Source: a virus. From it: a stretch of 64,000 bases of DNA. The notes beneath the pieces were generated by a model. The model did not search any database, was not told the DNA's origin, and saw only the letters and a program-made list of their open reading frames with translations. Location: the IMG/VR virus record IMGVR_UViG_3300008110_010000, positions 8,199 to 72,198 of that record. One strand, 5' to 3'. Made by a program: the position numbers and the translations under genes. This document shows positions 21,263-49,124 of this stretch, piece after piece; the stretch's first letter is position 1, and the number at the start of each line of letters is the position of its first letter.

Positions 21263-21263
21263 G

Positions 21264-21917
21264 TTAAATTATTTTGGCGCTAGGCGCTATTTTATTGAAT
21301 TCGTTGATCGAATGGCTAGAGTATTCTGGATCTTCAAATATAATTCCATGATTTCCGTTCCCACTTTTATCGAATGTTTTAAATTTTGAATTTCTTTCAA
21401 AATCAAAAAACGAGTACAGCTTTTTTGATTTCTCGTCAAAGGAATCGACGATTTCATCGAAAACTGCAATTTTATAAATATCCCCTTTGAACCAGCATTC
21501 ATAAGATCCACTGTATGGATTTATAGATCCTATAAAAATATTCTTGTCTGAATAAGATTCAATTGGACCGGTTTCTTTTTCACCTTTTAAAATTCCATCG
21601 ATGTATATTTTAACAGAATCTGAAACTGTCACCATGACTTCCATTCTTTTATGTATATCATCAACAGGTATCCAGATATCGTTATATTGATAGGGTTTAG
21701 TGTACCAAGAGAATTTAACACCATTTGGTTTCTGTAAAAATATTCCCATATGGTATCCTATCCTTCCTACAATCAACGACTCATCCTCTGCAAACTCAGA
21801 GAGTTGAAAATCCCCATAAAGAGAAAAATTCCCCTCCAGATTTTCAAAATTCTTTGTGTTCGTATTATTTTTAGAATTGTTTGGGATGTAATATGCTTTC
21901 TTTTCGAATCTCATCAA
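21264..21917 (-). CDS. hypothetical protein
   Basis: 217-aa ORF with no motif recognised. Confidence 0.3.
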   Translation of the reverse strand: MMRFEKKAYYIPNNSKNNTNTKNFENLEGNFSLYGDFQLSEFAEDESLIVGRIGYHMGIFLQKPNGVKFSWYTKPYQYNDIWIPVDDIHKRMEVMVTVSDSVKIYIDGILKGEKETGPIESYSDKNIFIGSINPYSGSYECWFKGDIYKIAVFDEIVDSFDEKSKKLYSFFDFERNSKFKTFDKSGNGNHGIIFEDPEYSSHSINEFNKIAPSAKII

Positions 21918-23296
21918 ATTATTTTTTTATAAAATTCCTCAAATTCTGGAAAAACCTTCAAAAAATTGGTGCCTCTTCTTTTATCGTGATTGTCTACAAA
22001 AATTCGGAAATCCCTCCTGTTCTGTAATAAGGTCTCTTCAGGTTCTTCCGTTACCATCCAATCATGAATTCTATTTAACTTATTGATTTCGATGTCGGTA
22101 TATCCAAATCCATCAAGACCAACTCTTATTTGTTCGTAGAAGTCCATTAGCTGAGCTTGCTCTTTTACTACTGCAGACCATTCCTTATCTAATATTTTCA
22201 CTGTCTGGTGTGGAGGCCACCTTAAATAGGACGAGTCTAACATAATAGAGGAGCCATAGTATCTGTGAGGGTTGTGATATTCTTCCTTAAGCTTTACCAC
22301 ATTTTCTATTAACTTTTCATAATTAGGAACGGAAAGTGCGTTATATGTGGACATTATTATTACGGTCAGAGGCTCAATTTCTTTCAATAGAAAATTAACT
22401 CTATCCCACCATTGGTTGAAGACCAAACCATGTCTAATGTATTCAGCTTGTTCTCCCCAGGTATCTGCACTGGTAAATAGTATCACCTCGTTTACCCTGT
22501 TCTCGTCTATCATTCTTTTTAATTTTTCTACCATTAGATTAAAAAGCTTATCTGGTGCTCCTAAATTCGTATTGAGAGAAAAATTTAAATTTCTGTTTGG
22601 GTTTTTTTCATCCAAGATATAATCAAAAACCTTAAAAGTGTCTTTAGACAGAAGAGGTTCCCCTCCCGTTATTCTAAAAGTATGAAGATCTCTGTATAAA
22701 TCAGGCCACCATTTCCAGAAAGCCTCAACGTATGGGTTCTCCTGATTATGCGGTCTTGGGATCATGTTCAGATCCTTCAAATATTCTAAATTGTTAAATC
22801 TAAAGCTGGTAGGATATGGTCCATGCTGCTCTATTTCTTGAACCCATTGGGAAGAGAACGACGGTCCACAATACGAGCATTTAAAATTACAGTGATTACT
22901 AAAAGCTACCTCAACATACTTAGGATTGTAATTTTCTTTCCACCCTAAATCTTTTATTTCATTAAAATATGGGGCAGACCAGGGTTCAGAAGATTTATAA
23001 ATTCTATCGGAAAATGCATTTGATGTATCTTCTATATTCCAGCAATAATCGCATTCATCTGGTCTTTTACCATGAAGCATTTTTCTTCTCTGCTGCTTTT
23101 TATAAACTGTATTATGTAGAGCAGATGGGTTTTTTTCTAACTCTGATAGTGGGATATGATGCGTGCCTGGATGGTGACACGAATGTGTTTGTCCCATTTG
23201 TAAATGAAGTGTTACTTGAGTCCATTTTGCTAAACAAAAGCCACATCCAACATCGTTTAATTTATTTCTAGTTTTGTCGAAAAATTCGTTTAGCAT
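21914..23296 (-). CDS. radical SAM enzyme (paralog 4)
   Basis: CNFKCSYC motif. N-terminal FCLAKW ... SCHHPGTHHIPL is clearly paralogous to 19703..21262. Confidence 0.6.
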   Translation of the reverse strand: MLNEFFDKTRNKLNDVGCGFCLAKWTQVTLHLQMGQTHSCHHPGTHHIPLSELEKNPSALHNTVYKKQQRRKMLHGKRPDECDYCWNIEDTSNAFSDRIYKSSEPWSAPYFNEIKDLGWKENYNPKYVEVAFSNHCNFKCSYCGPSFSSQWVQEIEQHGPYPTSFRFNNLEYLKDLNMIPRPHNQENPYVEAFWKWWPDLYRDLHTFRITGGEPLLSKDTFKVFDYILDEKNPNRNLNFSLNTNLGAPDKLFNLMVEKLKRMIDENRVNEVILFTSADTWGEQAEYIRHGLVFNQWWDRVNFLLKEIEPLTVIIMSTYNALSVPNYEKLIENVVKLKEEYHNPHRYYGSSIMLDSSYLRWPPHQTVKILDKEWSAVVKEQAQLMDFYEQIRVGLDGFGYTDIEINKLNRIHDWMVTEEPEETLLQNRRDFRIFVDNHDKRRGTNFLKVFPEFEEFYKKII

Positions 23297-24603
23297 TATA
23301 GTAATCTTTTTTTAATTATCGGATTGAGACTCTCCAAACAAATTAGATCGTTTGGTAAATTTCTGTGTTTTGAATTATTTGCAATCATTAAATCGTGTCT
23401 TTCTTTATGATTTACCCATGGATTATCTCCAAATAATCTTATATGTTCATTTATACTCGATATAAATATCTTCGATTCAAAGTCGTCGTTATCTAAAATA
23501 AACTCTGGAAGATGATACGAATTAACAAACGGAACAATGTAATCATAATTTCTCCTGAGAATTGATTCAAAGCTATTTTTTATATTCGCTCCGTCAAGTA
23601 ATATACATCCATTCTTGACGTAGAATATTATATTCTTTTTACTATCCTTTAAAATATTTAAAATTATTTGGGATTCTAAATCTTCCGATGATGTGTCCAA
23701 GAAAACATATTCATATTCAAAATGATCAGTAATCATGCTTCTGAGCGTCTCCTTGCTGTTTTTTTCGATCACAAAATATCTAAGATTTTTAAATTTATTT
23801 TTATAAAAGTTTAGGGTAGTTTCCAAAACCCCTCCATAATTTTCTTCAGTTCCATCTACCGAAACAAAAGCACAGACCTCAGTAGAGATGCACGGTATGT
23901 CTTCATATGGTGGATAATGATTGTCTCTAAAATTTACTAGCTGTTTATAAAGAGAATTTGATATGGTTGAAGGAAATTCGCAGTTTGATAACGCAAGGCC
24001 AAAAACAGCTCCCTCTCCTCTTAAATCATCATCAGCCTCCTTCGCTACCTTTTTTCTAAGCATCGAATAAAATTCATAGGTTTCAAACAATTTGTCTATC
24101 TTTTCTTCGTCAATACCCTCGAAATTAAAATACATTAAATCTTCCCATGGAGTAACTGTATTTCTAAATTCAACATTATTTTTTATCAGCTCATCTTTAA
24201 ATTTTCCAAGTTTTGGATTCGTTTCTAATAAGGCTTTGAAATGTATGCTTGTAAATCTGTTGTATGAAAATCCTGGATTAAAATTCTTAGAAATAATATC
24301 ATTTATGAATTCTTCAGAATTTATCAATATCAGATCAGAATCCATATAAAGTATTTTATTATACCCCCTTTTTCTTACCTGGTTAATGAATATAAATTTG
24401 CTATGAAAATCAAAGGTTGTGGAAAAATCGTGCTTTATTATTTCAACCCCTTCCATGTCTTTGAATTCTGACACATTATCGGTGTAAACAAATATTTTAA
24501 AAGATCCACTATCAGTGAAATTCTTTATTAAAAATTTGCAGCAGGTATAATAATACTCAGTATTAGAAGCAATTGTCGCTATTGCTATTTTATTTTCCAT
24601 CAT
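23296..24603 (-). CDS. hypothetical protein
   Basis: 435-aa ORF in the glycosylation array. No motif recognised. Confidence 0.35.
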   Translation of the reverse strand: MMENKIAIATIASNTEYYYTCCKFLIKNFTDSGSFKIFVYTDNVSEFKDMEGVEIIKHDFSTTFDFHSKFIFINQVRKRGYNKILYMDSDLILINSEEFINDIISKNFNPGFSYNRFTSIHFKALLETNPKLGKFKDELIKNNVEFRNTVTPWEDLMYFNFEGIDEEKIDKLFETYEFYSMLRKKVAKEADDDLRGEGAVFGLALSNCEFPSTISNSLYKQLVNFRDNHYPPYEDIPCISTEVCAFVSVDGTEENYGGVLETTLNFYKNKFKNLRYFVIEKNSKETLRSMITDHFEYEYVFLDTSSEDLESQIILNILKDSKKNIIFYVKNGCILLDGANIKNSFESILRRNYDYIVPFVNSYHLPEFILDNDDFESKIFISSINEHIRLFGDNPWVNHKERHDLMIANNSKHRNLPNDLICLESLNPIIKKRLL

Positions 24604-26046
24604 TTATGCTTTGCAATTAATCAGAAGGGTATTGTTGAATACCTCTTTAGTAGAGACTAACTCGTACTTCATACTGTTGAATCCCTCACTTTTATAGTTT
24701 ATACATTTCCTTTGCATTTCAGTTACGAACCTTTTTTCATTTCTTGCTGTTGTTTCCCCCTTTGCCCACTTATTATTTACTAGCCCTTCGTCAATGTGTG
24801 GTAAACACTCGAAAGATCCTTCTCTCCTATAAGGAATTGGCATGTCGCTAACCTCGATGGAATCTTCAACGATTTCTAAATTATAAGCCTTAGCTTTAAT
24901 TCCACTCATTACGTCTTCGATTTCTCCATTTTCTATCAAATCAAATTTAAAATGCAGAACTGGCTTATGTTTTAAATCGTGAAATTTAGTAACATCTCCT
25001 GGAATTTTTACTGCCTTATCAAAAATCATTAATTCTGCAATTTCACCTCTAAAAAATAATGGATTTTCCTCGTCGCCGTTATATCCCACGATAGATTTTT
25101 CTTTATCCCTATACTGAAATAAATCATTATTTATTATTGTAGATTTATTTTCTTTGATTCCTTTTTCGTTAGATCTTGCTAGTTCGTCATTTAGAAAAAA
25201 ATTAAAGTGACCACTTGAAGAATCATAAGATGTTGTTACCCAGGACCAAACACCATCATCCCTCTTGATCCAATTATAGATCTGGGATGATGAAAAATCT
25301 GAAATCATGCTAGTAACAGCTCTGGAGTTGTTAAAAGATATGCAGTACGGACTATATGATTGCTTTCGGAAAACCGGAAATTCTATGAATTTTTTGTCAT
25401 CCGTTCCTATTAGCCAATCTTTATATTTTTCAGGTTGTTGTTCTGCTTTAAATAAAGCACATACCGTATGATCTGATCCCAGTATTTTGTTTATGGATTT
25501 TATCCATGGGATTTCAACATATGAGTTGTCTCCATTAAATCTTGAAAATTTTCTTTTTTTATATTTTTTATAAATCCTTTTTTCAACATATCCTTCGAAA
25601 TAACATCGATAAAAAAGGTCGTCATCTTCCATACCCCAATCCCAATAATCATTAGAATATCCGTTAGTTTTTATAACTTGATCCTTAGTAAATAGAATTA
25701 CCCCACCGAAGTATTGTTCATAATTTAGTTTGAAATCGTACTTCGAAAGTTTTGTTGCTATATGAATTGGATATTTTTCCGGATATGAATAGTCACAATC
25801 ATCGGAGAATGGCACCATATCAACGTCATGCCATGCAATATAATCACATCCATCATCGAAGGCAAACTTGGCTGCTATGTTTTTCATTAGTCCCCTATTA
25901 AACAGCTTATTATCCACCTGATGGGCCACATAAAATTTATGATCTATTCCACGATTTTTTAGATACTCCCCCAGGTCTTCAGTTAGCTTCTGTAAGTGAT
26001 CGAATCTATTTCTGTAAGGTATGCAAATTCCCAGTTTATGACTCAT
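24604..26046 (-). CDS. GT7-family beta-1,4-galactosyltransferase-like glycosyltransferase with C-terminal extension
   Basis: LGICIPYRNRFDHL, FNRGLMKNIA, WHDVDMVPF, YFGGVILFTKDQVIKTNGYSNDYWDWGMEDDDLF: the full set of B4GALT/GT7 signature blocks. Confidence 0.65.
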   Translation of the reverse strand: MSHKLGICIPYRNRFDHLQKLTEDLGEYLKNRGIDHKFYVAHQVDNKLFNRGLMKNIAAKFAFDDGCDYIAWHDVDMVPFSDDCDYSYPEKYPIHIATKLSKYDFKLNYEQYFGGVILFTKDQVIKTNGYSNDYWDWGMEDDDLFYRCYFEGYVEKRIYKKYKKRKFSRFNGDNSYVEIPWIKSINKILGSDHTVCALFKAEQQPEKYKDWLIGTDDKKFIEFPVFRKQSYSPYCISFNNSRAVTSMISDFSSSQIYNWIKRDDGVWSWVTTSYDSSSGHFNFFLNDELARSNEKGIKENKSTIINNDLFQYRDKEKSIVGYNGDEENPLFFRGEIAELMIFDKAVKIPGDVTKFHDLKHKPVLHFKFDLIENGEIEDVMSGIKAKAYNLEIVEDSIEVSDMPIPYRREGSFECLPHIDEGLVNNKWAKGETTARNEKRFVTEMQRKCINYKSEGFNSMKYELVSTKEVFNNTLLINCKA

Positions 26047-27449
26047 ATTCCTACGTTAATTTCTGTTATATTTCCCTCTCTTTTTCTTCCGTGATCTGTG
26101 TACTTTAGATCCGATAATCCGTCTCCAAATAAAAGATTGCTGTTATTTCTTACCTCGTTATAGAATCTTAATTGATTCCATCTAGTTGCTTTATCCTTCC
26201 ATCTATTTTCGAAGAAACCATTTTGCTCATGTTTCATGGATTTAAAGATAGAATCCCTTCTGATCGGAAGGTCTATTTTTTTAAACCAAGGACCTTCCAT
26301 ATCAACAATTTCACATTTGAAAATACTAGCATCGTTTCCGTTTCCTGAAAGATCTACTAACTTATAATTTTCTATGTGCTCTGCATCATAGTGACAAAGA
26401 ATGGATCCGGATTTTTTATATTCCGAAAAGTCGTTTGTTGCTGAAACAGATTTAACTTCATTTTCACTTAAAATTCCTTCTAAGACTACCAAAGAATCTA
26501 TGTACCCCTTGAAAAAATTAGGATCTCCATTTCTTTTAGGATTTCCTGCACCGATAAAGAAATACTTTTCGTCTGAATAATCCTTTAATTCTCCCTCCCA
26601 ATTTGTTTTTCCTATATGTTCTCCGTCTTGATAGAAATTTATTTCTCTCAACGATTGATTTAATGTGATACAAATATTTGTTTGATAATTAGTAGTTATT
26701 TCTGTGTTTATGTATGATGCTTTTTCTTCGGAGTTGAATGTAACAAAATTGTATCTCTTGAATGAATTATAGGAAATTGCAGTGTCATACCCCGGAATGC
26801 TAAAAACCGTATAAACATCAAGATCCTTCGTTGAATCATAAACCAATTCATCGGGGAAAAAAGATGCAAATAATGTTAGATCCTTGTCTATGCAAAAATT
26901 ATTTTTTGCTCTCACAAAAGAATCCTGTCCGTTAAATTTTAGTGATTTATGGAAATTTCTTGTTTTTTTGATGTAATAAGGCTCTGTGCCTATGCTCTTG
27001 TTTTTGCATCTTAGGAAAAGGTCATCATCTTCAAATCCCCATCCCCAATACTTATTTGAATATCCGTTTATCTTTTTGAAATCTTTAATCGGAAACATAG
27101 TGACCCCGCCGAAGTATTCGTCGAATGGCTTTGATCTTTCCCCCGAGTCCTCGTCCTCTATTAGAGTTGCAAGATGAACTGGATGATCACAGTAAGAATA
27201 ATCAACATCCAATGGCAGCAAATCAACATCATGAAAAACCACATAATCACATCTTAAGTTTCTGGCACACTTAAATCCTATATTTAATAGCATCCCTCGA
27301 TTAAATTGCTTACCGTCGTCTTGATTTACGATGATAATTTCATGTGGTATTTTTTCCTCGTTTAGATATTTTACTATCTCCTTGAGAAAAAAATAAAGAT
27401 GTTCCCCTCTGTGGCGGAAAGGAACTATGACTCCTAGTTTTTTATCCAT
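26043..27449 (-). CDS. GT7-family beta-1,4-galactosyltransferase-like glycosyltransferase (paralog)
   Basis: LGVIVPFRHRGEHL, FNRGMLLNIG, FHDVDLLPL, YFGGVTMF ... INGYSNKYWGWGFEDDDLF. Confidence 0.65.
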   Translation of the reverse strand: MDKKLGVIVPFRHRGEHLYFFLKEIVKYLNEEKIPHEIIIVNQDDGKQFNRGMLLNIGFKCARNLRCDYVVFHDVDLLPLDVDYSYCDHPVHLATLIEDEDSGERSKPFDEYFGGVTMFPIKDFKKINGYSNKYWGWGFEDDDLFLRCKNKSIGTEPYYIKKTRNFHKSLKFNGQDSFVRAKNNFCIDKDLTLFASFFPDELVYDSTKDLDVYTVFSIPGYDTAISYNSFKRYNFVTFNSEEKASYINTEITTNYQTNICITLNQSLREINFYQDGEHIGKTNWEGELKDYSDEKYFFIGAGNPKRNGDPNFFKGYIDSLVVLEGILSENEVKSVSATNDFSEYKKSGSILCHYDAEHIENYKLVDLSGNGNDASIFKCEIVDMEGPWFKKIDLPIRRDSIFKSMKHEQNGFFENRWKDKATRWNQLRFYNEVRNNSNLLFGDGLSDLKYTDHGRKREGNITEINVGI

Positions 27450-29334: not shown

Positions 29335-30123
29335 ATGGAAAAGAAGCAAAAAATATTGACTATAGGGGACATTCACGGGAGGGATTACTGGAAATTCATT
29401 ACCCATGGTAGTAGTTACGAATTTGAGCAGTGGGTAACCATGGTGAATGCTGGGGCTAATCCCATGGACGATTTGTTTAAAGAGGATTATCCTTATTTTT
29501 CCGCAGACAAGATAGTTTTTGTTGGTGATTACGTTGACAGTTTCACAATTAGTAATGTTGAGATCAAGAAAAATCTTGAGGATATCATTTTCTTTAAAAA
29601 GACACTACCAAATAAGGTAGTGCTTCTCTGGGGAAATCACGATGTTCAGTATTTTATTCCCAATCAAATCTGTAGCGGATATCGTCCAGAGGCAAGATGG
29701 GATCTACAGATTCTTTTTGAGAGCAATAAAGATCTTTTCCAGATGGCATATCACGAGGGTGATTATCTTTGGACTCATGCTGGTTTATTAAAGCCAGTAT
29801 TAAGTGATCTTTTAAAACATCATCCGGATCTAAAGGAACTTGGTAATGAGGCAGCTATTTTAAACGAGGCATTTAAAATGGAACTCCCCCAAATTTTTCA
29901 GGTGGACGGTGCCAGTGGGGGATGGAGCATGTACGGGGGACCGCTCTGGGTTAGGCCAAATCAGCTTCAAGAATATGGAGTAGACCTGCATCAGATAGTA
30001 GGACACACCCCGGTTTCAGAATTGAAGAATTTAAAAAATAAAAGAGACTATAACATCTGGCTCACAGATTATTTAGAATATAGCTTGGGCGAAGGACTTG
30101 ATCCCTTAACTTTAGAAATATGA
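29335..30123 (+). CDS. calcineurin-like metallophosphatase (Ser/Thr-phosphatase / ApaH-like)
   Basis: LTIGDIHGR, VFVGDYVDS and LWGNHD match metallophosphoesterase motifs I-III. Confidence 0.65.
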   Translation: MEKKQKILTIGDIHGRDYWKFITHGSSYEFEQWVTMVNAGANPMDDLFKEDYPYFSADKIVFVGDYVDSFTISNVEIKKNLEDIIFFKKTLPNKVVLLWGNHDVQYFIPNQICSGYRPEARWDLQILFESNKDLFQMAYHEGDYLWTHAGLLKPVLSDLLKHHPDLKELGNEAAILNEAFKMELPQIFQVDGASGGWSMYGGPLWVRPNQLQEYGVDLHQIVGHTPVSELKNLKNKRDYNIWLTDYLEYSLGEGLDPLTLEI

Positions 30124-30404
30124 TATCGAAAAAAACGAAAGAAAGGGCAAAACAAATTATGAATGGAACATATGTACCTCCAGAGCCAGAAAAGATAGCG
30201 GTTACTTTTGAGGTCACTGAAAAACAATATAAAAAATACAAAAGGTGGAGAAATGCTAAGAAGAAAAAAGAAGGGGAGCTTTACGTCGGAGCAATCGGAG
30301 GAGCATACACTTTTTGTTTTACTGCAACAGGAATAGGTGAAATAGTAACTGTGAAAGCAGCAGACGGAGATGAGTTAGATTTAACAGATTATAATACTTG
30401 GTAA
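30120..30404 (+). CDS. hypothetical protein
   Basis: 94-aa basic ORF whose start (ATGA) overlaps the upstream gene's stop. Confidence 0.3.
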   Translation: MISKKTKERAKQIMNGTYVPPEPEKIAVTFEVTEKQYKKYKRWRNAKKKKEGELYVGAIGGAYTFCFTATGIGEIVTVKAADGDELDLTDYNTW

Positions 30405-30405
30405 T

Positions 30406-31011
30406 ATGAAAGTGATATTTTTAGACAATGACGGAGTAATTTGCCTTTCCAATAATTGGGGATCACGACACAAGAAGCAAAAAAAATGGGGTGGTAGGAA
30501 ACTATCTATGACTACTCGTGAAATGCCCCTTGAATATAGATTTGATAATTTTGATAAAAAAGCAATTAAAATCTTAAATGAAATTCTAGAACAAACTGGA
30601 GCTGAAATTGTAGTGAGCTCCGATTGGAGATTGTATGCGGATTTAGAGGAGTTGGGGAAATACTACACATCCCAGGGTATTATCAAAAATCCTATAGGAG
30701 TAACTGAAATATTTCACCATAAAAATTGGGTAGAAGAAGGTAGAATACCCCCAGATTTTGATTGGTACAGAATCGAAGATAGGGAGCAAGAAAGGCACTT
30801 CGAAATTCTGGAATGGCTAAAGAAGAATCCGGAGGTTACTCAATGGGTAGCTGTGGATGATTTACACATGGGGATTCACGTCGAAGCAAGTTCTTATGGA
30901 GCATTCGATAGAGATTGGGGATTGAAAAATTTTGTATGGACTCCCAGAGCCTGGGAAGGAATTAAACAGTCAGGAATCAAAAAAAAGATTTTAAAATTTT
31001 TAAACAACTAA
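30406..31011 (+). CDS. HAD-like phosphatase
   Basis: MKVIFLDNDGVI carries the D-x-D-G-(T/V) HAD motif I. Confidence 0.4.
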   Translation: MKVIFLDNDGVICLSNNWGSRHKKQKKWGGRKLSMTTREMPLEYRFDNFDKKAIKILNEILEQTGAEIVVSSDWRLYADLEELGKYYTSQGIIKNPIGVTEIFHHKNWVEEGRIPPDFDWYRIEDREQERHFEILEWLKKNPEVTQWVAVDDLHMGIHVEASSYGAFDRDWGLKNFVWTPRAWEGIKQSGIKKKILKFLNN

Positions 31012-33603: not shown

Positions 33604-33985
33604 GGGGGTGTATTTGGCACTTGACAGACATTGGTAGTTCTTTGAGATGATGCAGGCCGAGTTAGTATTGGAAACTCGTTAATCACCTATGCAAACAATA
33701 AACGACGTAGAATTATCTACAATGACCTTCGAAGACGCTATGTCTTTCGTTGGTGCTGATTACGCAATAGCTGCCTAATCCCTCCCGCACACATCGTGGG
33801 GCTTAAAATAGAATGTGAACCCAGGTGGAATATGACTGAACCCGAAATCGAGTCATCTGAATTTGGTAGTTTAATCAGCCAACTATAAACTACATATTTT
33901 GTTTGTAAAGAAAAACAAGCTAAGCCTGTGAATGAGTTTCTTTTAACAGATGGACTGGACACCGGTTCGATTCCGGTCACCTCCA
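33604..33985 (+). ncRNA. ssrA: tmRNA (SsrA-like)
   Basis: 5' GGGGGTG pairs with 3' CACCTCC through a G3:U70 wobble, followed by discriminator A. The tRNA-like T-arm is GGTTCGATTCCGG. An internal tag frame ends ...GADYAIAA-TAA (33764-33778), like bacterial ...YALAA tags. The 3' CCA is not encoded. Confidence 0.7.
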
Positions 33986-34001
33986 CAAAAATTAATTTAA
34001 T

Positions 34002-35649: not shown

Positions 35650-35724
35650 TGCGGGGTAGAGCAGTGGTAGCTCGCTGGGCTCATAACCCAGAAGTCGTGG
35701 GTTCGAATCCCACCCCCGCTACCA
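35650..35724 (+). tRNA. tRNA-Met(CAT), initiator-like, CCA encoded
   Basis: Cloverleaf with anticodon CAT in loop CTCATAA. The anticodon stem has three consecutive G:C pairs (CTGGG/CCCAG) and an unpaired 1:72 (T:T), both initiator features. The 3' ACCA is encoded. Confidence 0.8.
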
Positions 35725-35878: not shown

Positions 35879-36652
35879 ATGAGCAAAAATTTGGTAATTT
35901 ATTTAAATGTCTTTGATGACATATCAAAGACAGCACAAAGTGTAGAATCGATTAGAAGAGCATGTCATCGATGGGGTGCTAATTTTTACGAGGTGACAAA
36001 CGTTCAGTATCCAAATGCACCTTATCCCTTTCTCTGGGAAACCCTTGCAGCTTTTGAAGAGTTCAATCACTATGATAAAATTTTAAATTTGGATCATGAT
36101 ATCATCATAAATTCTAATGCTCCAAACATATTTGAGGAATTAACAGATGAATATGATTTTTGTGCTGTTAGAGACGGGAATCCGGGAGGAAGATTTCCTC
36201 ATAATGATGGATTTCTAAGAGATTCTATTATAAAAACAATTAGTCACGATCAAAATTGCTTTGATCTTTTTCATAGTGTTTTAAAGAATTTTAATTATGA
36301 AAAATACTGGCAAAATTATTTTAATTTAGGTGTCTATCTATTTAACCCCAAAAAATACAATCGATTGATTAAAGAAATCAAGCAATTGGCTTTTGATGAC
36401 AAAAGAGTTTATCAAATGCTTATGGGACAGGGATTTCCTTGGCACGCATTACAGAATTTTTTTAATGCTTACATATCTTCCTCCGATCTTAAAATTAAAT
36501 TAATTGACAATACTTGGAATTGGATTATGCCAGATATATCCGAGGAATATCACGATGATTTTTATCTGGGAAAAATGAAACCAAACATCTATCATTTCTG
36601 TGGAACCCCAACATCAAAGGAGGACCTTCCTTTTTATGACAGATGGAAATAA
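35879..36652 (+). CDS. putative glycosyltransferase (DxD-type)
   Basis: ILNLDHDIIINSN contains a DxD-like motif. The assignment is weak. Confidence 0.3.
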   Translation: MSKNLVIYLNVFDDISKTAQSVESIRRACHRWGANFYEVTNVQYPNAPYPFLWETLAAFEEFNHYDKILNLDHDIIINSNAPNIFEELTDEYDFCAVRDGNPGGRFPHNDGFLRDSIIKTISHDQNCFDLFHSVLKNFNYEKYWQNYFNLGVYLFNPKKYNRLIKEIKQLAFDDKRVYQMLMGQGFPWHALQNFFNAYISSSDLKIKLIDNTWNWIMPDISEEYHDDFYLGKMKPNIYHFCGTPTSKEDLPFYDRWK

Positions 36653-36667
36653 TTAAAATGAATCGAT

Positions 36668-37315
36668 ATGGCAAATGGAGTATACAAAATTACAGAAGAA
36701 TTTGAAAAATCACTCGAAAGCTATACAGGAGCTCCACATGTTGTAACTTTAGACAATCAGAGTAACGGACTTTTTCTTTCCCTATATTATGAAAATTACG
36801 TTAAAAAGAGCATAGAAAAAGGAAGTATAAAAATTCCAAGTCGAACTTATCCTTCAGTTCCTTGCGAGATTATTCATGCTGGCCTTAAAGTAGAGTTTGA
36901 GCATGTGAAAGGTAAGACGATTAAAGGTGCATACCAACTAAAAGGGAGCAAGGTTTGGGATTCTGCATTGTGTTTTACCTATAATATGTATAAGAAAAAT
37001 ACCCATATGTGCGTTTCTTTTACTGGACCATTTAAGCATTTTAAGTTGTCTAAAGGTGGAGCAATATTAACAGATGATCATGAAGCATATCTTTGGTTTA
37101 AAAGAGCTAGATATAGTGGCAGAAGAGAATGTTCTTATCATGACGATCACTTTGATATGCTGGGATGGAATTTTTATATGATGCCAGAATTAGCAGCAAG
37201 GGGTTTACTCATGATGGGACAATTTTATGATCCTACAACGGGAAAACCTAAAAACAATCCAGATCTGGAACTACCATATCCAGATTTATCAAAATTTGAT
37301 ATTTATAAAAAATGA
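36668..37315 (+). CDS. hypothetical protein
   Basis: 215-aa ORF with no motif recognised. Confidence 0.3.
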   Translation: MANGVYKITEEFEKSLESYTGAPHVVTLDNQSNGLFLSLYYENYVKKSIEKGSIKIPSRTYPSVPCEIIHAGLKVEFEHVKGKTIKGAYQLKGSKVWDSALCFTYNMYKKNTHMCVSFTGPFKHFKLSKGGAILTDDHEAYLWFKRARYSGRRECSYHDDHFDMLGWNFYMMPELAARGLLMMGQFYDPTTGKPKNNPDLELPYPDLSKFDIYKK

Positions 37316-39495
37316 GTAAAAAATTATCTATAATAATTCCCTCACTAAACAGGGAAAAATTACTTATAAGTTCTATCAATAGCATAGTAGAAATTTTTAA
37401 TTCATTCAACTTTCAAGATTATGATGTACATGCTATAGTAAATGGGTCAAACAAAAATACAACAGAAAAAATTAGAGAGAATATTTTTTTACATCATCAT
37501 GAAAAAAAATTGAATCCTGGAATAGCGAGAAATATAGGAATTGAAAAAAGCGACTCTGAGTGGATTTGGTTTATTGACGACGACGATGAAATAGTAGGTG
37601 AAAACATATCAAAAGTAATAGATTTTTTATACGACAAAAATGGTAATCATGGATTCGATTTAATAGCTCATTCTTTAAAAAATAAATACATTCCGGAAGA
37701 TAATAAGAGATCTCTATTGGAAAATGTTTGTTTTTTTAAAGAAAAACAGGAGGCATTCAATTACATTTTCAAAAGAGATTTAATAAAAAAGCATAATATA
37801 TTATTTTCCGACGGATTACACGAGGATATCAGATACGTAACAGAACTGATAATAAATTCCTCCATCATTAAAATATTTGATTTTTTCCTGTATAAAAAAA
37901 TTAACCGGGATGATTCGATAACTAAAAATCTCAATCCATCTAGAATAGATGGATATTTACTAGCAATCAGCGAGATTCAATCACTAGATAGCGATGAAAT
38001 TTCTTCGATGTCTAATGGAATAGTGACACAGTGTCTAGGAACTATCCTATATCTAATAAACAAATCCCAAAATAAGTTGGAGCTACTAGAATATCTGGAC
38101 AGCAAATTCACATTTTATCTAAGATCAAAAATAACCGAAACGTATAGTGAAAAAGATACTAATTTCAAATACGCTGTTTCTCTTTACATTAATAAGAAAG
38201 ACAATCTAGTATTTCTTGAAAGATTAAACGAATGCTTTTCTAGCTATCTCTCTTGTAGAGATCTAAAAAACTCAATATTTCTTGGTCCGAAAGAAATAAT
38301 AGGATGCTGTAAAAGATTCTTTTATAATGGTAAGATGAAGGGTGACATCGTTTTAATGTCGGAATCAATAGATGTTAATTTAGATTCTATACTTAAAAGA
38401 AAGGCTGAGGTTGAAGATGGGATAAATTCACAGACATATGAACCTTGTGAGGGGTGCCCTTATATAGAAAGATATAGTAGATTAGAAAATAAAAAAATAA
38501 ACTACATAAGCTTAGAAAATTTCACTTATTGCAACATGCGTTGTACTTATTGTTCTCCTAAATATTATGGGGGTAAAGAAGCAGTATACAACACTCATGA
38601 TATAATTAGTCAATTAATAGATGGTGAATATCTTGACGATAAAGTACACGTTGTTTGGGGAGGGGGAGAGCCAACATTACAAAGGGAATTTGGGGAAATA
38701 ACAGAGAAACTAATAAACATAGAAAATGTCTATAAGATAAGAGTTCTTACAAACAGTCTAAGATTTTCAAACGATCTTTATAACCTAGCATCGAATGATA
38801 AAATAAGGATAGTTACTAGTATAGATGCAGGAACTCAAGATGTATTTAAAAATATCAGGGGAAAAGGAGAAATTTTAACAGTTTTAGAGAACCTAAAAAA
38901 ATATACAGAGCAAACCAAGGATCCAGAGAATCTAACTTTAAAATACATTCTAACTGAACAAAACTATCATTCCAATCAGTTAGAACAATTTGTAAAAACT
39001 ATAAAAGAATTTGGATTTGAAAACAATTTTGTCCAAATAAGTTGTAATTTTTTATATGATCATCTGGGTGATGAGATAATATTTTCAATATACGAATTAG
39101 CAGCTAGACTATTAAATAATGGATTTAAGTTTGTTTATTTTGATGATTTAATCCGTGACAGATTAGCTATAAGTGAGGATATTGCGGATAAAGTAATCAA
39201 TTATTTGTCGGAAAAATACCTCTATCACGATGATATAATTTCTTATAAGAGTAATAAACGGGTAGTTCTTTGGGGAGATGGATACCAATCTAGATGGATA
39301 AAAAACAGCACAACCTTTGGAAAATCTAATAAAATAAGGGGAATCGTTTCCGATATAAATGGATTTAACAATTTGAATTTAAATGTGGGTTTTACAGTAT
39401 CCCCTGCCGCAATCCAACAATTACCAGACATATTTAAGGAAATTAAGAAGGAAAAAGATGTCTATAATAAATTGAAATTCCACATATTTCTATAA
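37312..39495 (+). CDS. fusion protein: N-terminal GT2-family glycosyltransferase + C-terminal radical SAM domain
   Basis: LSIIIPSLNREKLL and FIDDDDE (GT2 DxD) in the first ~250 aa. C-terminal half has FTYCNMRCTYC (C-x3-C-x2-C) and a VVWGGGEPTL glycine-rich SAM motif. Confidence 0.6.
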   Translation: MSKKLSIIIPSLNREKLLISSINSIVEIFNSFNFQDYDVHAIVNGSNKNTTEKIRENIFLHHHEKKLNPGIARNIGIEKSDSEWIWFIDDDDEIVGENISKVIDFLYDKNGNHGFDLIAHSLKNKYIPEDNKRSLLENVCFFKEKQEAFNYIFKRDLIKKHNILFSDGLHEDIRYVTELIINSSIIKIFDFFLYKKINRDDSITKNLNPSRIDGYLLAISEIQSLDSDEISSMSNGIVTQCLGTILYLINKSQNKLELLEYLDSKFTFYLRSKITETYSEKDTNFKYAVSLYINKKDNLVFLERLNECFSSYLSCRDLKNSIFLGPKEIIGCCKRFFYNGKMKGDIVLMSESIDVNLDSILKRKAEVEDGINSQTYEPCEGCPYIERYSRLENKKINYISLENFTYCNMRCTYCSPKYYGGKEAVYNTHDIISQLIDGEYLDDKVHVVWGGGEPTLQREFGEITEKLINIENVYKIRVLTNSLRFSNDLYNLASNDKIRIVTSIDAGTQDVFKNIRGKGEILTVLENLKKYTEQTKDPENLTLKYILTEQNYHSNQLEQFVKTIKEFGFENNFVQISCNFLYDHLGDEIIFSIYELAARLLNNGFKFVYFDDLIRDRLAISEDIADKVINYLSEKYLYHDDIISYKSNKRVVLWGDGYQSRWIKNSTTFGKSNKIRGIVSDINGFNNLNLNVGFTVSPAAIQQLPDIFKEIKKEKDVYNKLKFHIFL

Positions 39496-39521
39496 TAGAA
39501 TATTTTTAAAGAGAATTATAA

Positions 39522-40622
39522 ATGAAAAATAAAAAATTAAAAGTTTCTGTCATAGGAGGGGGTATAAATTCTGCAGTGGGATACGCACACTATTCTGCTA
39601 TTAAGCTTTCAAACAAGTTCGAGATAACCTGCGGAAATTTTAGCAGAAATTCAAAGACTAATAGGGAAAGCGCTGAAATATATGGAGTGAATAAAGTTTA
39701 TAGCGACTATAGGACTATGCTGTTGGAAGAAAAAAATAATATAGATGCAGTTGTAATATTAACCCCTACGGATCAGCATTATGATCAGTTAGACCTTGCA
39801 ATAAGCTTAGGAATCCCTATTGTTTGTGAGAAATGCTTGATCGCTAATAATTTGGAATTAGAAAAACTGAAGGAGAAACAATCTAATAATTTCATAGCAG
39901 TTGTTTTCAATTATCTCTGTTATCCTATGTTGAAGGAATTAAAAAGCATAATTGATTCGGGTGGAATTGGAAAAATTTTACAGATTCAAATCGAGATGCC
40001 GCAAGAAGGATTTCTTAGGCACATGAACGGATTACCACTTAAACCACAAAAATGGAGATTAGTGGATGGAAGAGTTCCCACCCTTTCTCTTGATCTAGCA
40101 ACGCACACATATTCTATAGTAAGATTTTTAACATCACAAAATCCTTTAGAGGTTATTGCAGTCGAAAGTAGTTTTGGAAATTTTCCTGGAATAGTTGATG
40201 ATATAAATTGCATAATTAAATACACGAATGATATAATTTGTAATATGTGGTATAGTAAAACCGCATTAGGGAATAGAAATGGATTAAGGGTTAGAATATT
40301 TGGGTCTGATGGAAGTGCAGAATGGTACCAATTAGAACCAGAAGTAATTCACATGTCAGATAAAAGTGGAAAGATATCTTTGCTAGATAGGGGATCTGAA
40401 GGATTATTAACAGCTAATGAATTCAAATATAATAGATTCAAAGTTGGGCATCCTGTAGGATTTATTGAATCCCTCGCTAATTTTTATGAGGACGTCTATG
40501 ATGATTTTAAAAAAAGTCATGATGATCGCGTTACATATGGTCTAGAGCAATCAGAGGAGTGTATTAAACTGCTAGAGGCAATATCTAAGTCATCCGAAGA
40601 AAAATCTTGGCAATCCTTATGA
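39522..40622 (+). CDS. Gfo/Idh/MocA-family NAD(P)-dependent oxidoreductase
   Basis: N-terminal Rossmann KVSVIGGGINSAVGYAH with Gfo/Idh/MocA-like architecture. Confidence 0.5.
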   Translation: MKNKKLKVSVIGGGINSAVGYAHYSAIKLSNKFEITCGNFSRNSKTNRESAEIYGVNKVYSDYRTMLLEEKNNIDAVVILTPTDQHYDQLDLAISLGIPIVCEKCLIANNLELEKLKEKQSNNFIAVVFNYLCYPMLKELKSIIDSGGIGKILQIQIEMPQEGFLRHMNGLPLKPQKWRLVDGRVPTLSLDLATHTYSIVRFLTSQNPLEVIAVESSFGNFPGIVDDINCIIKYTNDIICNMWYSKTALGNRNGLRVRIFGSDGSAEWYQLEPEVIHMSDKSGKISLLDRGSEGLLTANEFKYNRFKVGHPVGFIESLANFYEDVYDDFKKSHDDRVTYGLEQSEECIKLLEAISKSSEEKSWQSL

Positions 40623-41782
40623 AAAAAATTTTACTGCTCGATACTAACGTTTCATCGTTTCCTATTTATAATTTTTTGGTTAACGAGGGATATGAAGTTT
40701 ATGTTGCTGGATCAAAAGAAAATGATTGTCTGGCAAAATGCTCTACTAATTATATTTTTTTAGACTATTCCAGAATAGAAGAATTAAACAAAATAATTGA
40801 AGATTATAAATTTGATTATATTGTTCCAGGGTGTAACGACATGTCTTATGCTTGTGTTACTAAAATAAATAAATCTAGAAAATTTCCTGGATTAGATCCG
40901 ACTGAAATTTGCGAAACTATTAATAATAAATCGATGTTTAGAGATTTTGCAATTTCGAATGGATTAAATGTTCCCAAGGTTTATTCTTTAAAAGATGCTT
41001 ATTGTGTTAATGTTCCACTAATAATAAAACCAGTTGATGCTTATAGCGGGAGAGGGATTTCTATAGTAAACGAACCAAACAAGATGTTACTAGATTTGGC
41101 TGTTGAAAATGCTATAAAATTTTCAAAAGACAAAAAATATGTAATAGAAGAATACAAAACAGGTCAGCTATACAGTCATTCTGCATTTATAGAAAACAAA
41201 AAGATAGTAAAAGATTTTATAGTTGTAGAAAATTGTACTGCCAATCCTTTTACTGTGGATTCTAGTTATGTTGTACATGATGACTTTCCTGTTAATTTGC
41301 TAGAATCAATAAGGAAAGATATAGAGATAATAGCAAAAATTTTAAAATTAGAGGATGGTCTTATTCATACGCAATTTATAAGGTCTGGAGATTCTTTTTA
41401 TATAATAGAGGTTACCAGAAGATGTCCGGGGGATTTGTATAGCTTGCTGATTGAAAAATCTACAAATTTTAAATATTCACAAAATTATGTTAGACCTTTT
41501 ATTGGGAAAAAAATAATACAATCCACATCAGAAGAAATTAAAAAATACATTTTTAGACACACTATATCTAGCGATGCAGACCTTTTTTCGATTGGAATTG
41601 AATTTAAAAACGAATTGGATATAGATTTATACATTTCTCTTTCTGTTACTGGGGATGAAATGAAAAAATCACCATTCAGTAGATTTGGTCTGGTCTTCAT
41701 TAAATGTAACGATCAGAAGGATCTTGAGAATAAATACGGCCTAGCTTTGAGGAGAGAACTATATTATTATAAGAGTATATAG
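40607..41782 (+). CDS. ATP-grasp family ligase
   Basis: PLIIKPVDAYSGRGISIV is an ATP-grasp phosphate-binding loop. N-terminal pre-ATP-grasp domain. Confidence 0.5.
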   Translation: MAILMKKILLLDTNVSSFPIYNFLVNEGYEVYVAGSKENDCLAKCSTNYIFLDYSRIEELNKIIEDYKFDYIVPGCNDMSYACVTKINKSRKFPGLDPTEICETINNKSMFRDFAISNGLNVPKVYSLKDAYCVNVPLIIKPVDAYSGRGISIVNEPNKMLLDLAVENAIKFSKDKKYVIEEYKTGQLYSHSAFIENKKIVKDFIVVENCTANPFTVDSSYVVHDDFPVNLLESIRKDIEIIAKILKLEDGLIHTQFIRSGDSFYIIEVTRRCPGDLYSLLIEKSTNFKYSQNYVRPFIGKKIIQSTSEEIKKYIFRHTISSDADLFSIGIEFKNELDIDLYISLSVTGDEMKKSPFSRFGLVFIKCNDQKDLENKYGLALRRELYYYKSI

Positions 41783-41798
41783 AGATATTTTTATAGAA

Positions 41799-42122
41799 AT
41801 GATTACAGTAACTGAAAAAGCAGCACAAAGAATTAAATACCTAATAGAAGAAGCAGAAGATTCTAAGTTTTATCTAAGAGTATCTGTTAAAGGGGGAGGA
41901 TGTAGCGGACTTTCATATGATTTATCATTTGATGACGAGATGAACGAAAAAGACACTCTTTATGAAGATAAAGCAGTTAAAATATTAGTGGATAATAAAT
42001 CCATTCTTTATCTGTTTGGAACTGAACTAGACTTCTCTGACGGACTTAACGGTAAGGGATTTCAGTTCGTAAATCCTAATGCCTCCCGCACATGTGGATG
42101 TGGAGAAAGCTTTGCTGTGTAG
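41799..42122 (+). CDS. A-type iron-sulfur cluster carrier (IscA/HesB/ErpA family)
   Basis: 107 aa with a GGGCSG block and C-terminal RTCGCGESF: the three conserved Cys of HesB/IscA. Confidence 0.75.
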   Translation: MITVTEKAAQRIKYLIEEAEDSKFYLRVSVKGGGCSGLSYDLSFDDEMNEKDTLYEDKAVKILVDNKSILYLFGTELDFSDGLNGKGFQFVNPNASRTCGCGESFAV

Positions 42123-42138
42123 CTTGATATATAGCTAC

Positions 42139-42831
42139 ATGATAAAGGGGTTTTCTGAATACATTAACGAAGCTTATAGCAATCCTAAAAATTATACGGA
42201 TTTAAAATACGGAAATCCACAAAAGTGGCAAAAAGAAGCCATGGACAGAGGATCTAACCTTTTAAAATCTGTCAAAGAATCAAATCTTTGGGAAAAATGG
42301 ACTTCTAGTTTACCTCCCAATCAAGATTCAGAGGAGGTAAAATCCGATTTACAAAATTTAATTCTCATGGGAAATTCTTTAACCGAGGAGGAAAAAGAGT
42401 TTGTAAAGGATTCAGAAAATGATATGCTAGGAATCTTTGAGAAATTTTTAAAGTTAAATGGGGTTGATTCTATTAAGAAAGAAGATTTGGAATCGGTAAC
42501 AGATGAATTGGATCCGATCACTTTTATTTTAAAATATCAGTTTAACTATCCTAGACCACTTCAACTGGCTCTTGTCCACGACATACCCCTTTATCCAGAG
42601 CAGCCAACTAACGCTTGCAGTCCCGCTTATCCTTCCGGACACTCAATAGATGCTTTTGTGATTGCTGGATTGATTGCTAAAAAATACCCTCAACTTGCCG
42701 ATGATGTTTCTAAGCTTTCTGAAAGAGTTTCTATGACTAGAAACCTGGGAGGAATACATTTCACGTTTGATTCATCCTTTGGTAAAGAAATAGCAGAAGA
42801 TATACTTTCTTTGGATCTTTTATCCCTTTAG
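42139..42831 (+). CDS. PAP2-superfamily phosphatase (acid phosphatase/haloperoxidase-like)
   Basis: NYPRP, YPSGHS and SRVSMTRNLGGIHFTFD match the K-x6-RP / PSGH / SR-x5-H-x3-D PAP2 motifs. Start moved to the internal ATG at 42139 to avoid overlap with the IscA-like gene. Confidence 0.55.
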   Translation: MIKGFSEYINEAYSNPKNYTDLKYGNPQKWQKEAMDRGSNLLKSVKESNLWEKWTSSLPPNQDSEEVKSDLQNLILMGNSLTEEEKEFVKDSENDMLGIFEKFLKLNGVDSIKKEDLESVTDELDPITFILKYQFNYPRPLQLALVHDIPLYPEQPTNACSPAYPSGHSIDAFVIAGLIAKKYPQLADDVSKLSERVSMTRNLGGIHFTFDSSFGKEIAEDILSLDLLSL

Positions 42832-42948: not shown

Positions 42949-45900
42949 ATGGCAAATTATAGAATTTTAGGACAAGAAACTGTTAACAATTCGGTAAGTC
43001 CGGGACCTACCCTTGTAACACTTTATACGGTTCCTCAAAATGCTTCCATTCTAATCAATGCAATAACCGGATATAATGAGGGATTTAATAGTGGATATCT
43101 TACCGTTGCAGTAAAAAGGAACGGGGACGAGGACTATTCTCCAGATCAAATTGTTATAAATACTCCCTTAGCACCCGGTGCTTCAATACAAATTTCTCCT
43201 CAATTTTCTCCTGTTGGTTTAACTGCCGGCGACGTAATACTTTTAGTTGGTAATTATTCTCCTGCCCCTACAACAGTAGCGGTAACCTTATTCGGTGAAG
43301 ACGGGGCTTCTAGCGGTGGATCCGGCAATGCAGGAACATCCGGAACTTCAGGAAACAGTGGGGGCTCAAGTACTTCAGGAAGTAATGGTACTAGCGGGAC
43401 TTCGGGAACTAATGGATCTACAGGAACTGGTGGTACTAGTGGTACCTCTGGAATGAACGGATCTATCGGAACTAATGGTACGAGTGGAACCTCAGGTGAA
43501 ACCTTCGGAACTAGTGGAACGTCAGGGGCAGCTGGTGCTCCTGGAGCAGCGGGATCTTCTGGAACATCTGGGGTTTCCGGAGCATCTGGTTCTTCTGGAA
43601 CCTCTGGGGTTTCCGGAGCATCCGGTTCTTCCGGAACATCGGGAAATTCAGGTTCTTCTGGAACATCTGGGATTTCCGGGGCATCTGGTTCTTCCGGAAC
43701 ATCAGGAAATTCGGGATCCTCTGGTACATCAGGAAATTCGGGAACCTCTGGTACTTCGGGAGAATCTGGTTCTGCTGGTACATCCGGATCATCTGGAACA
43801 TCAGGAAACTCCGGGTCATCCGGTACATCAGGAAACTCCGGGTCCTCCGGTACATCAGGAAATTCGGGAACCTCTGGTACTTCTGGGGAATCTGGCTCTT
43901 CTGGAACATCAGGATTCTCTGGGTCCTCCGGAACATCAGGAAACTCCGGGTCATCCGGTACATCAGGATCCTCTGGAGAACCCGGTTCTGCCGGAACATC
44001 GGGATCCTCAGGTACATCTGGTACATCAGGAAACTCCGGGTCATCCGGTACATCAGGGTCATCCGGTACATCAGGGTCCTCTGGTACATCTGGTGCTGAT
44101 GGTACATCCGGTTCTTCCGGAACCTCGGGAAACCCTGGATCATCAGGGACCTCTGGAACATCAGGAAACTCTGGATCATCGGGGACCTCCGGATCCGCTG
44201 GAACTTCTGGTTTAAGCGGAATATCTGCAGGACAGATTTATTATTTTAACCAATCTCAGTCTTCTGACATTTCTCCATATAAAGTCCTTAGTGTTTACCC
44301 ATCAGGAGCTGCTGAACAAACAGTTCCTATGGTATTAACGGGCGGGCAATTGAATGTTCTGGTAAGTCAATTCCTGACCCCCGAATTGGGATTTGCTGTA
44401 ATTCCACCAGGCACTCAGAGATTTCATCTGCATTTTTTAAAACAACAGTTTAATGATGACATAGATGGCTATGTTACCATAGAACTTGCAAATTCGTCAG
44501 GTGTAGGATATGGCACTATTATTCAATCAAACAAAGCTTTAATTGGATGGGTGAGTGTTTCTCAATCTTATGAGCTGTTGGTTGATATTGTTTTACCTTC
44601 AGTATACATAAACACCACAGACAGAATGATTGTCAAGGTTTACGTTGACAATAATGAAGCAACCGTCAGAAATTTAACTTGGTACACAGAGGGGGCTCAA
44701 AACTATTCATATGTAATCACATCGGTTGGAGCAATTGTAGCAAGCTCTGGAACGTCAGGGAGTTCTGGAACTAGTGGATCAAGCGGAACTTCGGGATCCG
44801 GGGGTTCATCAGGAACTAGCGGATCTAGTGGATCGGAGGGAACTTCAGGTAGCTCTGGTACTTCCGGCAGTTCTGGAACCTCTGGAGAAGATGGAACTTC
44901 AGGTAGCTCTGGTACTTCCGGCAGTTCTGGAACCTCTGGAGAAGATGGAACTTCGGGATCTGGGGGTTCATCAGGAACTAGCGGATCTAGTGGATCGGAG
45001 GGAACTTCAGGTAGCTCTGGTACTTCGGGAACCTCTGGAGAAGATGGAACTTCAGGTAGCTCTGGTACTTCGGGAACCTCTGGAGAAGATGGAACTAGTG
45101 GATCTTCAGGTACATCAGGAACCTCGGGGGTGTGCGAGTGTCCACACAGCTACACTATCACGGCTCCAACGGATATCACGTGTTACTCTTTAACAAATGA
45201 CGGAGATCCCGACAACGTAAATAGTACAAACTATCTCGATTGTAACGGGAATCCTGCGGTCATTTACAATAAAATTTTTCTCACACCAGCTACTTATTTC
45301 TGTGCTCAGACCGGATCTGTTACAACTGATTCGGGGCTCACTGTAATATCAGTACCTGATGATCCTGGATCTTGCGACGGATGTTGCGATGGATATGCTT
45401 ATTCTTATACCGACGAAACAGATACTATCATAAGTGGAATCATATATGACGGAGAATCTCTAACTTTCTGTGCGATCCCAGGATCTGTAGTTTGGTCCCA
45501 TACAATAGTAGACAATGGGCATTGTGTAGGAAGTTCAGGTACTTCCGGCAGTTCTGGTTCGAATGGTACGTCAGGTAGCTCTGGTACTTCCGGCAGTTCT
45601 GGATCTTCTGGGACATCAGGAACTGATGGTTCCTCCGGTAGTACAGGTACTTCTGGTTCTTCCGGCAGTTCTGGATCTTCTGGGACATCAGGAACTGATG
45701 GTTCCTCCGGTAGTACAGGTACTTCTGGATCCTCAGGGTCATCTGGAACTTCCGGAACTGATGGATCTTCAGGTACATCAGGTAACTCTGGTTCTTCTGG
45801 AACCTCAGGATCAGCAGGTACATCAGGAAATGAGGGTCCCCCTGGATCTTCGGGAACGTCAGGAATTGATGGAACCAACGGATCGACAGGTTCTTCTGGA

Positions 45901-48860: not shown

Positions 48861-48890
48861 AGGGTTCTTTGACATTGTGGAAAATAACGG

Positions 48891-48975: not shown

Positions 48976-48980
48976 CAATT

Positions 48981-49053: not shown

Positions 49054-49124
49054 CGATACTAACGTAAAACTTGTACACTAACATAATCCTTGTTAGCGTA
49101 CAAAAAGTTCGTTAGCAGTCAAAT

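Follow-up and report, generated by a model that had tools for sequence, protein, structure and literature searches.

The element at positions 33604–33985 of the window (the whole 64-kb stretch of DNA analysed here) is a real tmRNA gene, maintained by selection in a huge freshwater phage that has not been cultured. Across a family of related phages, purifying selection acts on it both as a structured RNA and as a translated one, since its base pairing is kept through compensatory changes and variation in its tag falls mostly at third codon positions. It is likely that the gene specifies a functional tmRNA acting in ribosome rescue and tagging with the help of host machinery, in a huge phage that probably infects Bacteroidota.

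The family of related RNAs was assembled from several sources. Among GenBank phages, neither near nor distant search modes return a nucleotide match to the tmRNA and its flanks. An exact-protein look-up finds the near-identical region in six independent metagenome assemblies (ENA, JGI and NCBI), each with the GMP-reductase gene and 10 kb on either side of it, and with a tmRNA identity of 99.7–100%. A degenerate pattern for the end of the tag recovers diverged tmRNAs in long viral contigs of IMG/VR (164, 229 and 237 kb) and in shorter contigs, and a metagenome scan contributes seven further tmRNA loci, giving a family of 12 distinct sequences that fall into about five clades. Outside the tag, the relatives are 62–79% identical to the window tmRNA. 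One other candidate, L021, a Cyclobacteriaceae MAG that came from the scan of genome contigs for the tag end and was considered as a binned phage contig, lacks a tmRNA and was discarded as a chance match.

The tmRNA gene and its tag

The preliminary description, made from the sequence letters, had placed a tmRNA at 33604–33985, and two independent programs call one there. ARAGORN reports a tmRNA at 33604–33986 on the plus strand, with the tag DVELSTMTFEDAMSFVGADYAIAA followed by a stop, and the Rfam tmRNA model RF00023 matches 33604–33988 with 79.5 bits (E = 3.3e-29; gathering score 47), spanning the full model (1–374). Given this E-value and the covariation across relatives described below, the call is far beyond chance. 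The score is roughly half that of a bacterial-type tmRNA (157 bits, at the locus L020), which marks the window tmRNA as atypical, and the middle of the Rfam alignment has low posterior probabilities. Taken together with direct reading, these calls define a one-piece tmRNA (ssrA) gene that runs from the 5’ G1 to the discriminator A. All of its features lie on the plus strand, and a position in the tmRNA is converted to a window coordinate by adding 33603.

The ends of the RNA form a tRNA-like domain composed of an acceptor stem and a T-arm, with no anticodon arm. The 5’ strand of the acceptor stem, GGGGGUG (33604–33610; tmRNA 1–7), pairs with the 3’ strand CACCUCC (33978–33984; tmRNA 375–381), an assignment made from the sequence and from covariation. 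All seven pairs are kept in all family members, with pair 5 switching from G-C to A-U, and the stem includes G3:U70, the alanine identity pair. The T-arm, ACCGG-UUCGAUU-CCGGU (33961–33977; tmRNA 358–374), has a loop of the GUUCGAnUC type and shows compensatory change in three of its five pairs; the discriminator A is read directly at 33985. The features listed in the preliminary description are thus all present where it had put them: the 7-bp acceptor with G3:U70, the discriminator A and the TTCGATT T-loop by direct reading, and an internal frame ending in ...GADYAIAA before TAA by both ARAGORN and direct reading. The G3:U70 pair, the T-loop and the frame-setting nucleotide A97 are invariant among the relatives.

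The tag reading frame identified by ARAGORN occupies 33704–33778 (tmRNA 101–175), beginning with the resume codon GAC and continuing through 24 codons (DVELSTMTFEDAMSFVGADYAIAA) to the stop UAA. The start and full length of the tag go beyond the preliminary description, as does the lack of an encoded CCA noted below. The dinucleotide U96-A97 (33699–33700) is equivalent to U85-A86 of E. coli. A97 sits 4 nt before the resume codon, and position 96 is either U or C within the family. In E. coli, A86 at the same spacing sets the tag frame, as shown by Miller et al. (PMC2481249).

No other segment of the RNA is as conserved as the tag frame, which shows 84–93% identity as against 62–79% for the remainder. 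The 72 nt of the frame contain 18 variable columns, 12 of which are at codon position 3, and half of the variable codons (6/12) carry synonymous changes only. The first tag codon is GAC, GAU, GGC or GCA among relatives, coding for Asp, Gly or Ala, and the family consensus reads [DGA]VELSTMT[FW][ED]D[AVL]M[SAE]FVGADYAIAA. Substitutions of this kind are characteristic of purifying selection on a translated peptide.

The resulting peptide is long, at 24 residues, with an acidic conserved middle and an -AIAA end. Among tmRNAs in the fetched genome loci, bacterial tags with the same ...DYAIAA ending are much shorter, at 8–14 residues. This end is found in tmRNAs of Xanthomonas, Pseudomonas, Opitutales, Bdellovibrio and spirochaetes, among others, and because it is scattered over several unrelated bacterial groups it has no value for identifying a host or a donor. 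None of the 30 bacterial tmRNAs detected in the fetched genome loci resembles the phage RNA, and a full-text search of the published literature for the tag motif returned nothing beyond noise.

RNA structure under selection

Alignment of the whole RNA by MAFFT misaligned the 5’ end, and the helices were therefore extracted by sequence anchors. Pairs were counted in seven distinct family members over six helices comprising 34 pairs. All 34 pairs are canonical in all seven sequences, a percentage inflated by the anchors, which were set by hand and partly chosen for complementarity. This bias leaves the comparison of compensatory changes with slid controls informative: compensatory (both-side) change occurs at 14 pairs in the family (one in the acceptor, two in helix 2, three in PK1 stem 1, one in helix 5, four of five in the PK2 loop stem and three in the T-stem), and when the partners are moved by 1 to 3 columns, 39–54% of positions are paired and 0–2 pairs are compensatory. 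In 500 shuffles, none reaches the observed values on four of five measures, and one does so on the fifth, the count of further pair types.

Helix 2 connects the tRNA-like domain with the ring of pseudoknots and tag. Its distal part, UGCAGGC/GCCUGUG (33651–33657 with 33924–33930; tmRNA 48–54/321–327), forms seven pairs that are 100% paired among relatives, two of them with compensatory change. The proximal part is irregular and was placed by the Rfam model alignment alone; RNAfold, run on the 5’ and 3’ parts joined together, gave no consistent helix for this portion.

The preliminary description had proposed mapping four pseudoknots, and two of these are recovered with compensatory changes. PK1 (33658–33692), supported by covariation and the Rfam alignment, lies upstream of the tag frame. 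Its stem 1, CGAG/CUCG (33658–61 with 33675–78; tmRNA 55–58/72–75), has compensatory change in three of four pairs, and its stem 2, GUAUUGG/CCUAUGC with one U-U mismatch (33665–71 with 33686–92; tmRNA 62–68/83–89), is present with differing sequences in each clade, as judged from the Rfam alignment and direct reading of the relatives. Helix 5 and PK2 (33783–33817) follow the tag, and both stems are supported by covariation. The helix 5 hairpin, UCCCGC-ACACAUC-GUGGGG (tmRNA 180–198), has six pairs and is 100% paired; within its loop, CACAU pairs with AUGUG (33813–17; tmRNA 210–214) to form the PK2 stem, in which four of five pairs show compensatory change.

The other two pseudoknots, PK3 and PK4, are seen only as covarying hairpins. 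Hairpin A, predicted by RNAfold at the place of PK3 (33832–33856; tmRNA 229–253), has the stem AUGACU/AGUCAU and a conserved loop, GAACCCGAAAUCG; the corresponding stems are GUGAUU/AAUCAC in the relative L015 and CCAAUU/AAUUGG in L019. Hairpin B, also predicted by RNAfold (33866–33893; tmRNA 263–290), has the stem GUAGUUUA/UAAACUAC, and relatives have a different hairpin at this place, such as CGGUUG/CAACCG in L015. Hairpin C, GUUUG/CAAGC with an A-rich loop (33901–33920; tmRNA 298–317), is at the place of PK4; the stems of relatives there read GUUAG/CUAAC (L015), GUCC/GGAC (L013) and AAGG/CCUU (L137). Every clade has one hairpin in each of the three places, with differing stem sequences. A U-run at 33894–33900 might pair with the loop of hairpin C. 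A search for second strands of PK3 and PK4 yielded no complementarity that holds across clades. Pseudoknots of the PK3/PK4 type can be replaced in E. coli tmRNA without loss of activity (PMC2481249).

The simplified 3’ region and the 3’ terminus bear on whether the gene is a decaying, non-functional relic of a captured host ssrA, in which loss of CCA and degenerate PK3 and PK4 would be marks of decay. The 3’ CCA is not encoded, as the gene reads ACAA after the acceptor, and this mutation of CCA to CAA is confined to the window clade, all other clades reading ACCA. The low central posterior probabilities in the Rfam alignment would also fit a relic, as would the result of a scan of the flanks, which found no sigma-70-like promoter or terminator on the tmRNA’s own strand. 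However, genes lacking CCA are the rule in this phage: 20 of the 21 tRNA genes in the window also have no encoded CCA, so post-transcriptional CCA addition appears to be the norm here and not a sign of decay. The only window tRNA gene that encodes CCA is tRNA-Met (CAU) at 35650–35724 on the plus strand, the tRNA gene nearest to the tmRNA. The relic reading is further opposed by the compensatory changes and complete pairing in six helices, the coding-type substitution pattern in the tag, the invariance of G3:U70, A97 and the T-loop, and the replaceability of the pseudoknots in E. coli, and it is accordingly considered very unlikely. As a separate observation, all 20 CCA-less tRNA genes have a C directly after the discriminator, mostly as CA.

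Phage genome, host and relatives

The preliminary description had noted a virus-like setting, and by its gene content and relatives the surrounding genome is that of a bacteriophage. The 21 tRNA genes in the window are interspersed with phage ORFs, at 48889–57899 and, for tRNA-Met, at 35650–35724. A collagen-like tail fibre of 1543 aa is encoded at 42949–47580 on the plus strand, and the window also encodes lysins (CHAP and glucosaminidase cell-wall hydrolases), an HNH endonuclease and many radical-SAM, glycosyltransferase and methyltransferase genes. A GMP-reductase/IMPDH gene ends 50 nt before the tmRNA. The window lacks genes for capsid, portal and terminase, and the roughly 55-kb contigs carrying the region contain no viral hallmark gene, which may account for the absence of the region from IMG/VR. 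Scanned window ORFs include no ribosomal, housekeeping or other core cellular genes, and a carrying contig of 0.2–1 Mb is listed in the sequence index. The carrier is a huge bacteriophage with a genome of more than 200 kb, as indicated by the 21 tRNA genes, the tail fibre, the lysins, the lack of housekeeping genes and the index contig above 200 kb. A giant eukaryotic virus was rejected as the carrier in view of the tmRNA, the peptidoglycan hydrolases, the tail fibre and an operon-like arrangement of genes with tight overlaps.

A bacterial chromosomal ssrA lying beside an inserted prophage or genomic island would provide another source for a tmRNA in such a contig. Islands and prophages commonly integrate at the tmRNA 3’ end (PMC12595487), and an arrangement of this type does occur in IMG/VR, where the bacterial-type tmRNA of L020, scoring 157 bits, sits on the border of a 41-kb provirus. 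The window differs from this arrangement in several respects. First, phage-type and auxiliary genes extend for more than 30 kb on both sides of the tmRNA, tRNA genes are interspersed with phage ORFs, and neither a housekeeping gene nor an integrase is found among the scanned ORFs. Second, a second copy of the tmRNA 3’ end, as would be expected of an att repeat, is absent from the window, and an integration-site reading was rejected on this ground. Third, relatives of the RNA lie inside viral contigs of 164–237 kb, the Rfam score is well below that of bacterial tmRNAs, and no similar RNA is present among the 30 bacterial tmRNAs detected. A chromosomal origin of the window copy is thus improbable in the extreme, and the gene is best regarded as part of the phage genome. 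The relatives in the 164–237 kb contigs adjoin tRNA arrays, and the order of tmRNA followed by tRNA-Met is kept in relatives.

The phage host is probably a member of the Bacteroidota, as suggested by weak evidence of three kinds. A Shine-Dalgarno signal is lacking (6/70 genes, compared with a background of 10.5%), and the leaders are A-rich. The best matches of an SPFH protein among GenBank phages are crAss-like Bacteroides phages, with 46% identity. The Bacteroidota promoter motif TTTG-N19-TATATTTG occurs in perfect form just upstream of the tmRNA in the relatives L013 and L137, and it is not enriched in the window. Two other proteins were set aside as uninformative taxonomic markers: UDP-galactopyranose mutase belongs to the auxiliary genes that are exchanged widely, and the matches of an AAA ATPase are distant and partial.

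Several other features of the region are recorded here in their own right. A very large block for glycan or small-molecule modification, an unusual cargo for a phage, occupies 14546–27449 on the minus strand and 35879–42831 on the plus strand. It includes at least five radical-SAM/SPASM proteins, glycosyltransferases of families GT2, GT7 and GT8, an aminotransferase, GFO/IDH/MocA, ATP-grasp and PAP2 proteins and a 727-aa GT2-radical-SAM fusion; the UDP-galactopyranose mutase is encoded at 57934–59022. A 624-aa protein encoded at 5408–7282 on the minus strand has Pfam matches to Hint/intein-splicing domains and may represent an intein-containing gene, and two adjacent small SET-domain-like proteins are found in the 5575–6482 region of the window (marks in L011). 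The region at 61420–59627 on the minus strand encodes a MoxR-type AAA_5 ATPase together with a DUF2201 (VWA-like) partner, and an Endonuclease_NS gene comes next. The collagen-like tail-fibre gene is the break point of most metagenome assemblies of the phage, and its product ranges from 1032 to 1552 aa among assemblies, which suggests repeat-number variation or assembly collapse. Genes of an RNA-repair or quality-control type, coding for a metallophosphoesterase and a HAD_SAK_2 protein, lie near the tmRNA at 29335–31011, and a TROVE/Ro60-like gene is present at L011 18195–19835, about 8 kb beyond the window start.

Two further RNAs were encountered in related contigs. A GOLLD RNA (RF02032, 261.7 bits) is found at L132 1546–1955 on the minus strand, 1.7 kb from a family tmRNA; L132 is the metagenome contig Ga0181358_1000176 from a related phage, in which GOLLD adjoins a 14-tRNA array. 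No match to GOLLD in the window itself reaches the threshold. A 139-nt ‘mini-tmRNA’ is present on the minus strand at L007 4715–4853 and L008 4091–4229, in IMG/VR contigs of 37 and 49 kb. The Rfam tmRNA model matches its tRNA-like domain alone with 59.3 bits, ARAGORN makes no call, and the RNA folds better than its shuffled versions (z = -3.0). The 32 nt that end at its discriminator, comprising the T-arm and the acceptor 3’ strand, are identical to those of the window tmRNA, and it has the same acceptor 5’ strand, GGGGGUG. The identity of the T-arms suggests that both RNAs go back to one template in a common host. The T-stem is shared by these two RNAs, whereas the closer relatives of the window tmRNA have a different one. 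Unlike the window tmRNA, in which a 314-nt ring of pseudoknots and tag separates the helix-2 strands, the mini-tmRNA has only 79 nt between them, encodes CCA and contains no recognisable tag frame or pseudoknots. A literature search found nothing specific on phage tmRNAs reduced to the tRNA-like domain.

Proposed role and relation to known tmRNAs

A role for the phage tmRNA in ribosome rescue and tagging during infection is what we infer from these features, with compatibility with the host SmpB, AlaRS and proteases being assumed. Genes for SmpB and a CCA-adding enzyme are not found among the ORFs of the 64-kb window; lacking an SmpB gene there, the phage presumably uses the SmpB, AlaRS and CCA-adding enzyme of its host. 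Host RNase P would trim the 5’ end of the transcript and the 3’ end would be trimmed after the discriminator. As the gene reads ACAA, the CCA would then be supplied by the host CCA-adding enzyme, and host AlaRS could charge the RNA with alanine through G3:U70. The charged tmRNA is expected to bind SmpB, presumably that of the host, and to enter ribosomes stalled on broken or stop-less mRNAs, where A97 would set the frame and translation would resume at GAC, appending (A)DVELSTMTFEDAMSFVGADYAIAA. Because its -AIAA terminus is similar to the -ALAA degron of bacteria, the tag would probably send truncated products to host proteases of the ClpXP type, leaving the ribosomes to be recycled. For the phage, the probable gain is a translation capacity sustained through infection, amid mRNA degradation and high demand, which fits with the phage’s own set of 21 tRNAs.

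The acidic tag, with its 24 residues, is longer than a plain degron requires, and phage-specific uses can be considered. The long acidic tag may lead tagged chains, which would be mostly those of the host, to a fate peculiar to the phage: another adaptor or protease might act on them, or they might be stabilised or relocalised. A second possibility is that the RNA serves as a defence-resistant substitute for the tmRNA of hosts that shut down or cleave their own translation RNAs; with HAD_SAK_2, the metallophosphoesterase, the TROVE/Ro60-like gene and the 21 tRNAs it would then form a single module for RNA repair and the upkeep of translation. A special fate would be consistent with conservation of the tag across scaffolds that are only 62–79% identical and with the 8–14 residues of bacterial tags having the same end, although that end, -AIAA, still has the Ala-rich, hydrophobic form of a canonical degron, no protease or adaptor of the phage’s own was identified, and bacterial tags of at least 20 residues exist, for example in mycoplasmas. 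For the substitute, HAD_SAK_2 is a ‘Swiss army knife’ RNA-repair HAD domain; its gene and that of the metallophosphoesterase lie 2.6–4.3 kb upstream of the tmRNA, with the TROVE/Ro60-like gene farther away, and phage tRNAs reportedly evade tRNA-targeting defences. However, gene proximity is no evidence of co-function. Such phage-specific uses are unlikely, and rescue and tagging through host machinery is the preferred reading of this RNA.

Comparison with the bacterial one-piece tmRNA (RF00023) reveals extensive likeness. In both, the tRNA-like domain carries G3:U70, the discriminator is A and the T-loop has the form GUUCGAnUC; helix 2 is long, PK1 precedes the tag and a frame-setting U-A stands 4 nt ahead of the resume codon; and the tag has an Ala-rich hydrophobic end (AIAA compared with ALAA), with the stop beside helix 5 and PK2 following. 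Unlike the bacterial RNA, the window tmRNA is encoded by a phage and scores 79.5 bits compared with 157 for one bacterial example. Its tag has 24 residues with an acidic conserved middle, as against 8–14 residues in the bacterial tags that end in ...DYAIAA; its resume codon specifies Asp (GAC), its PK3 and PK4 are seen as hairpins only, and its CCA is not encoded.

Phage-borne tmRNAs are already documented, and the idea of ribosome rescue by them is not new. Both tmRNA and SmpB have been reported from huge phages (Al-Shayeb et al. 2020, PMC7162821), and tmRNA is present in 402 of 18,146 phage genomes (2.3%), for which similar roles have been discussed (Buchholz et al. 2022, PMC9004378); neither study reports an experimental test of phage tmRNA function. 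As in these huge and cultured phages (PMC7162821, PMC9004378), the ssrA gene described here is found alongside many tRNA genes and other cargo related to translation, in a genome exceeding 200 kb, and the role proposed for it, that of keeping the hijacked translation machinery running, is common to known phage tmRNAs. Unlike them, it has no nucleotide match to GenBank phages and belongs to a separate freshwater family defined by its conserved tag. Some huge phages encode SmpB, and none is seen in the 64-kb window. The window tmRNA is also one-piece, whereas the ssrA of Melnitz-type marine phages is permuted, two-piece and linked to a riboswitch.

The distinguishing traits of the gene described here are a family-specific, conserved long tag and simplified 3’ pseudoknots. 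This gene and its relatives define a small family of freshwater huge-phage tmRNAs with a distinctive conserved tag, and add a well-supported, evolutionarily maintained case to the known phage-borne tmRNAs while leaving current understanding of them unchanged. Since purifying selection clearly acts on the tag peptide as well as on RNA structure, this family is a good candidate for a functional test of a phage tmRNA.
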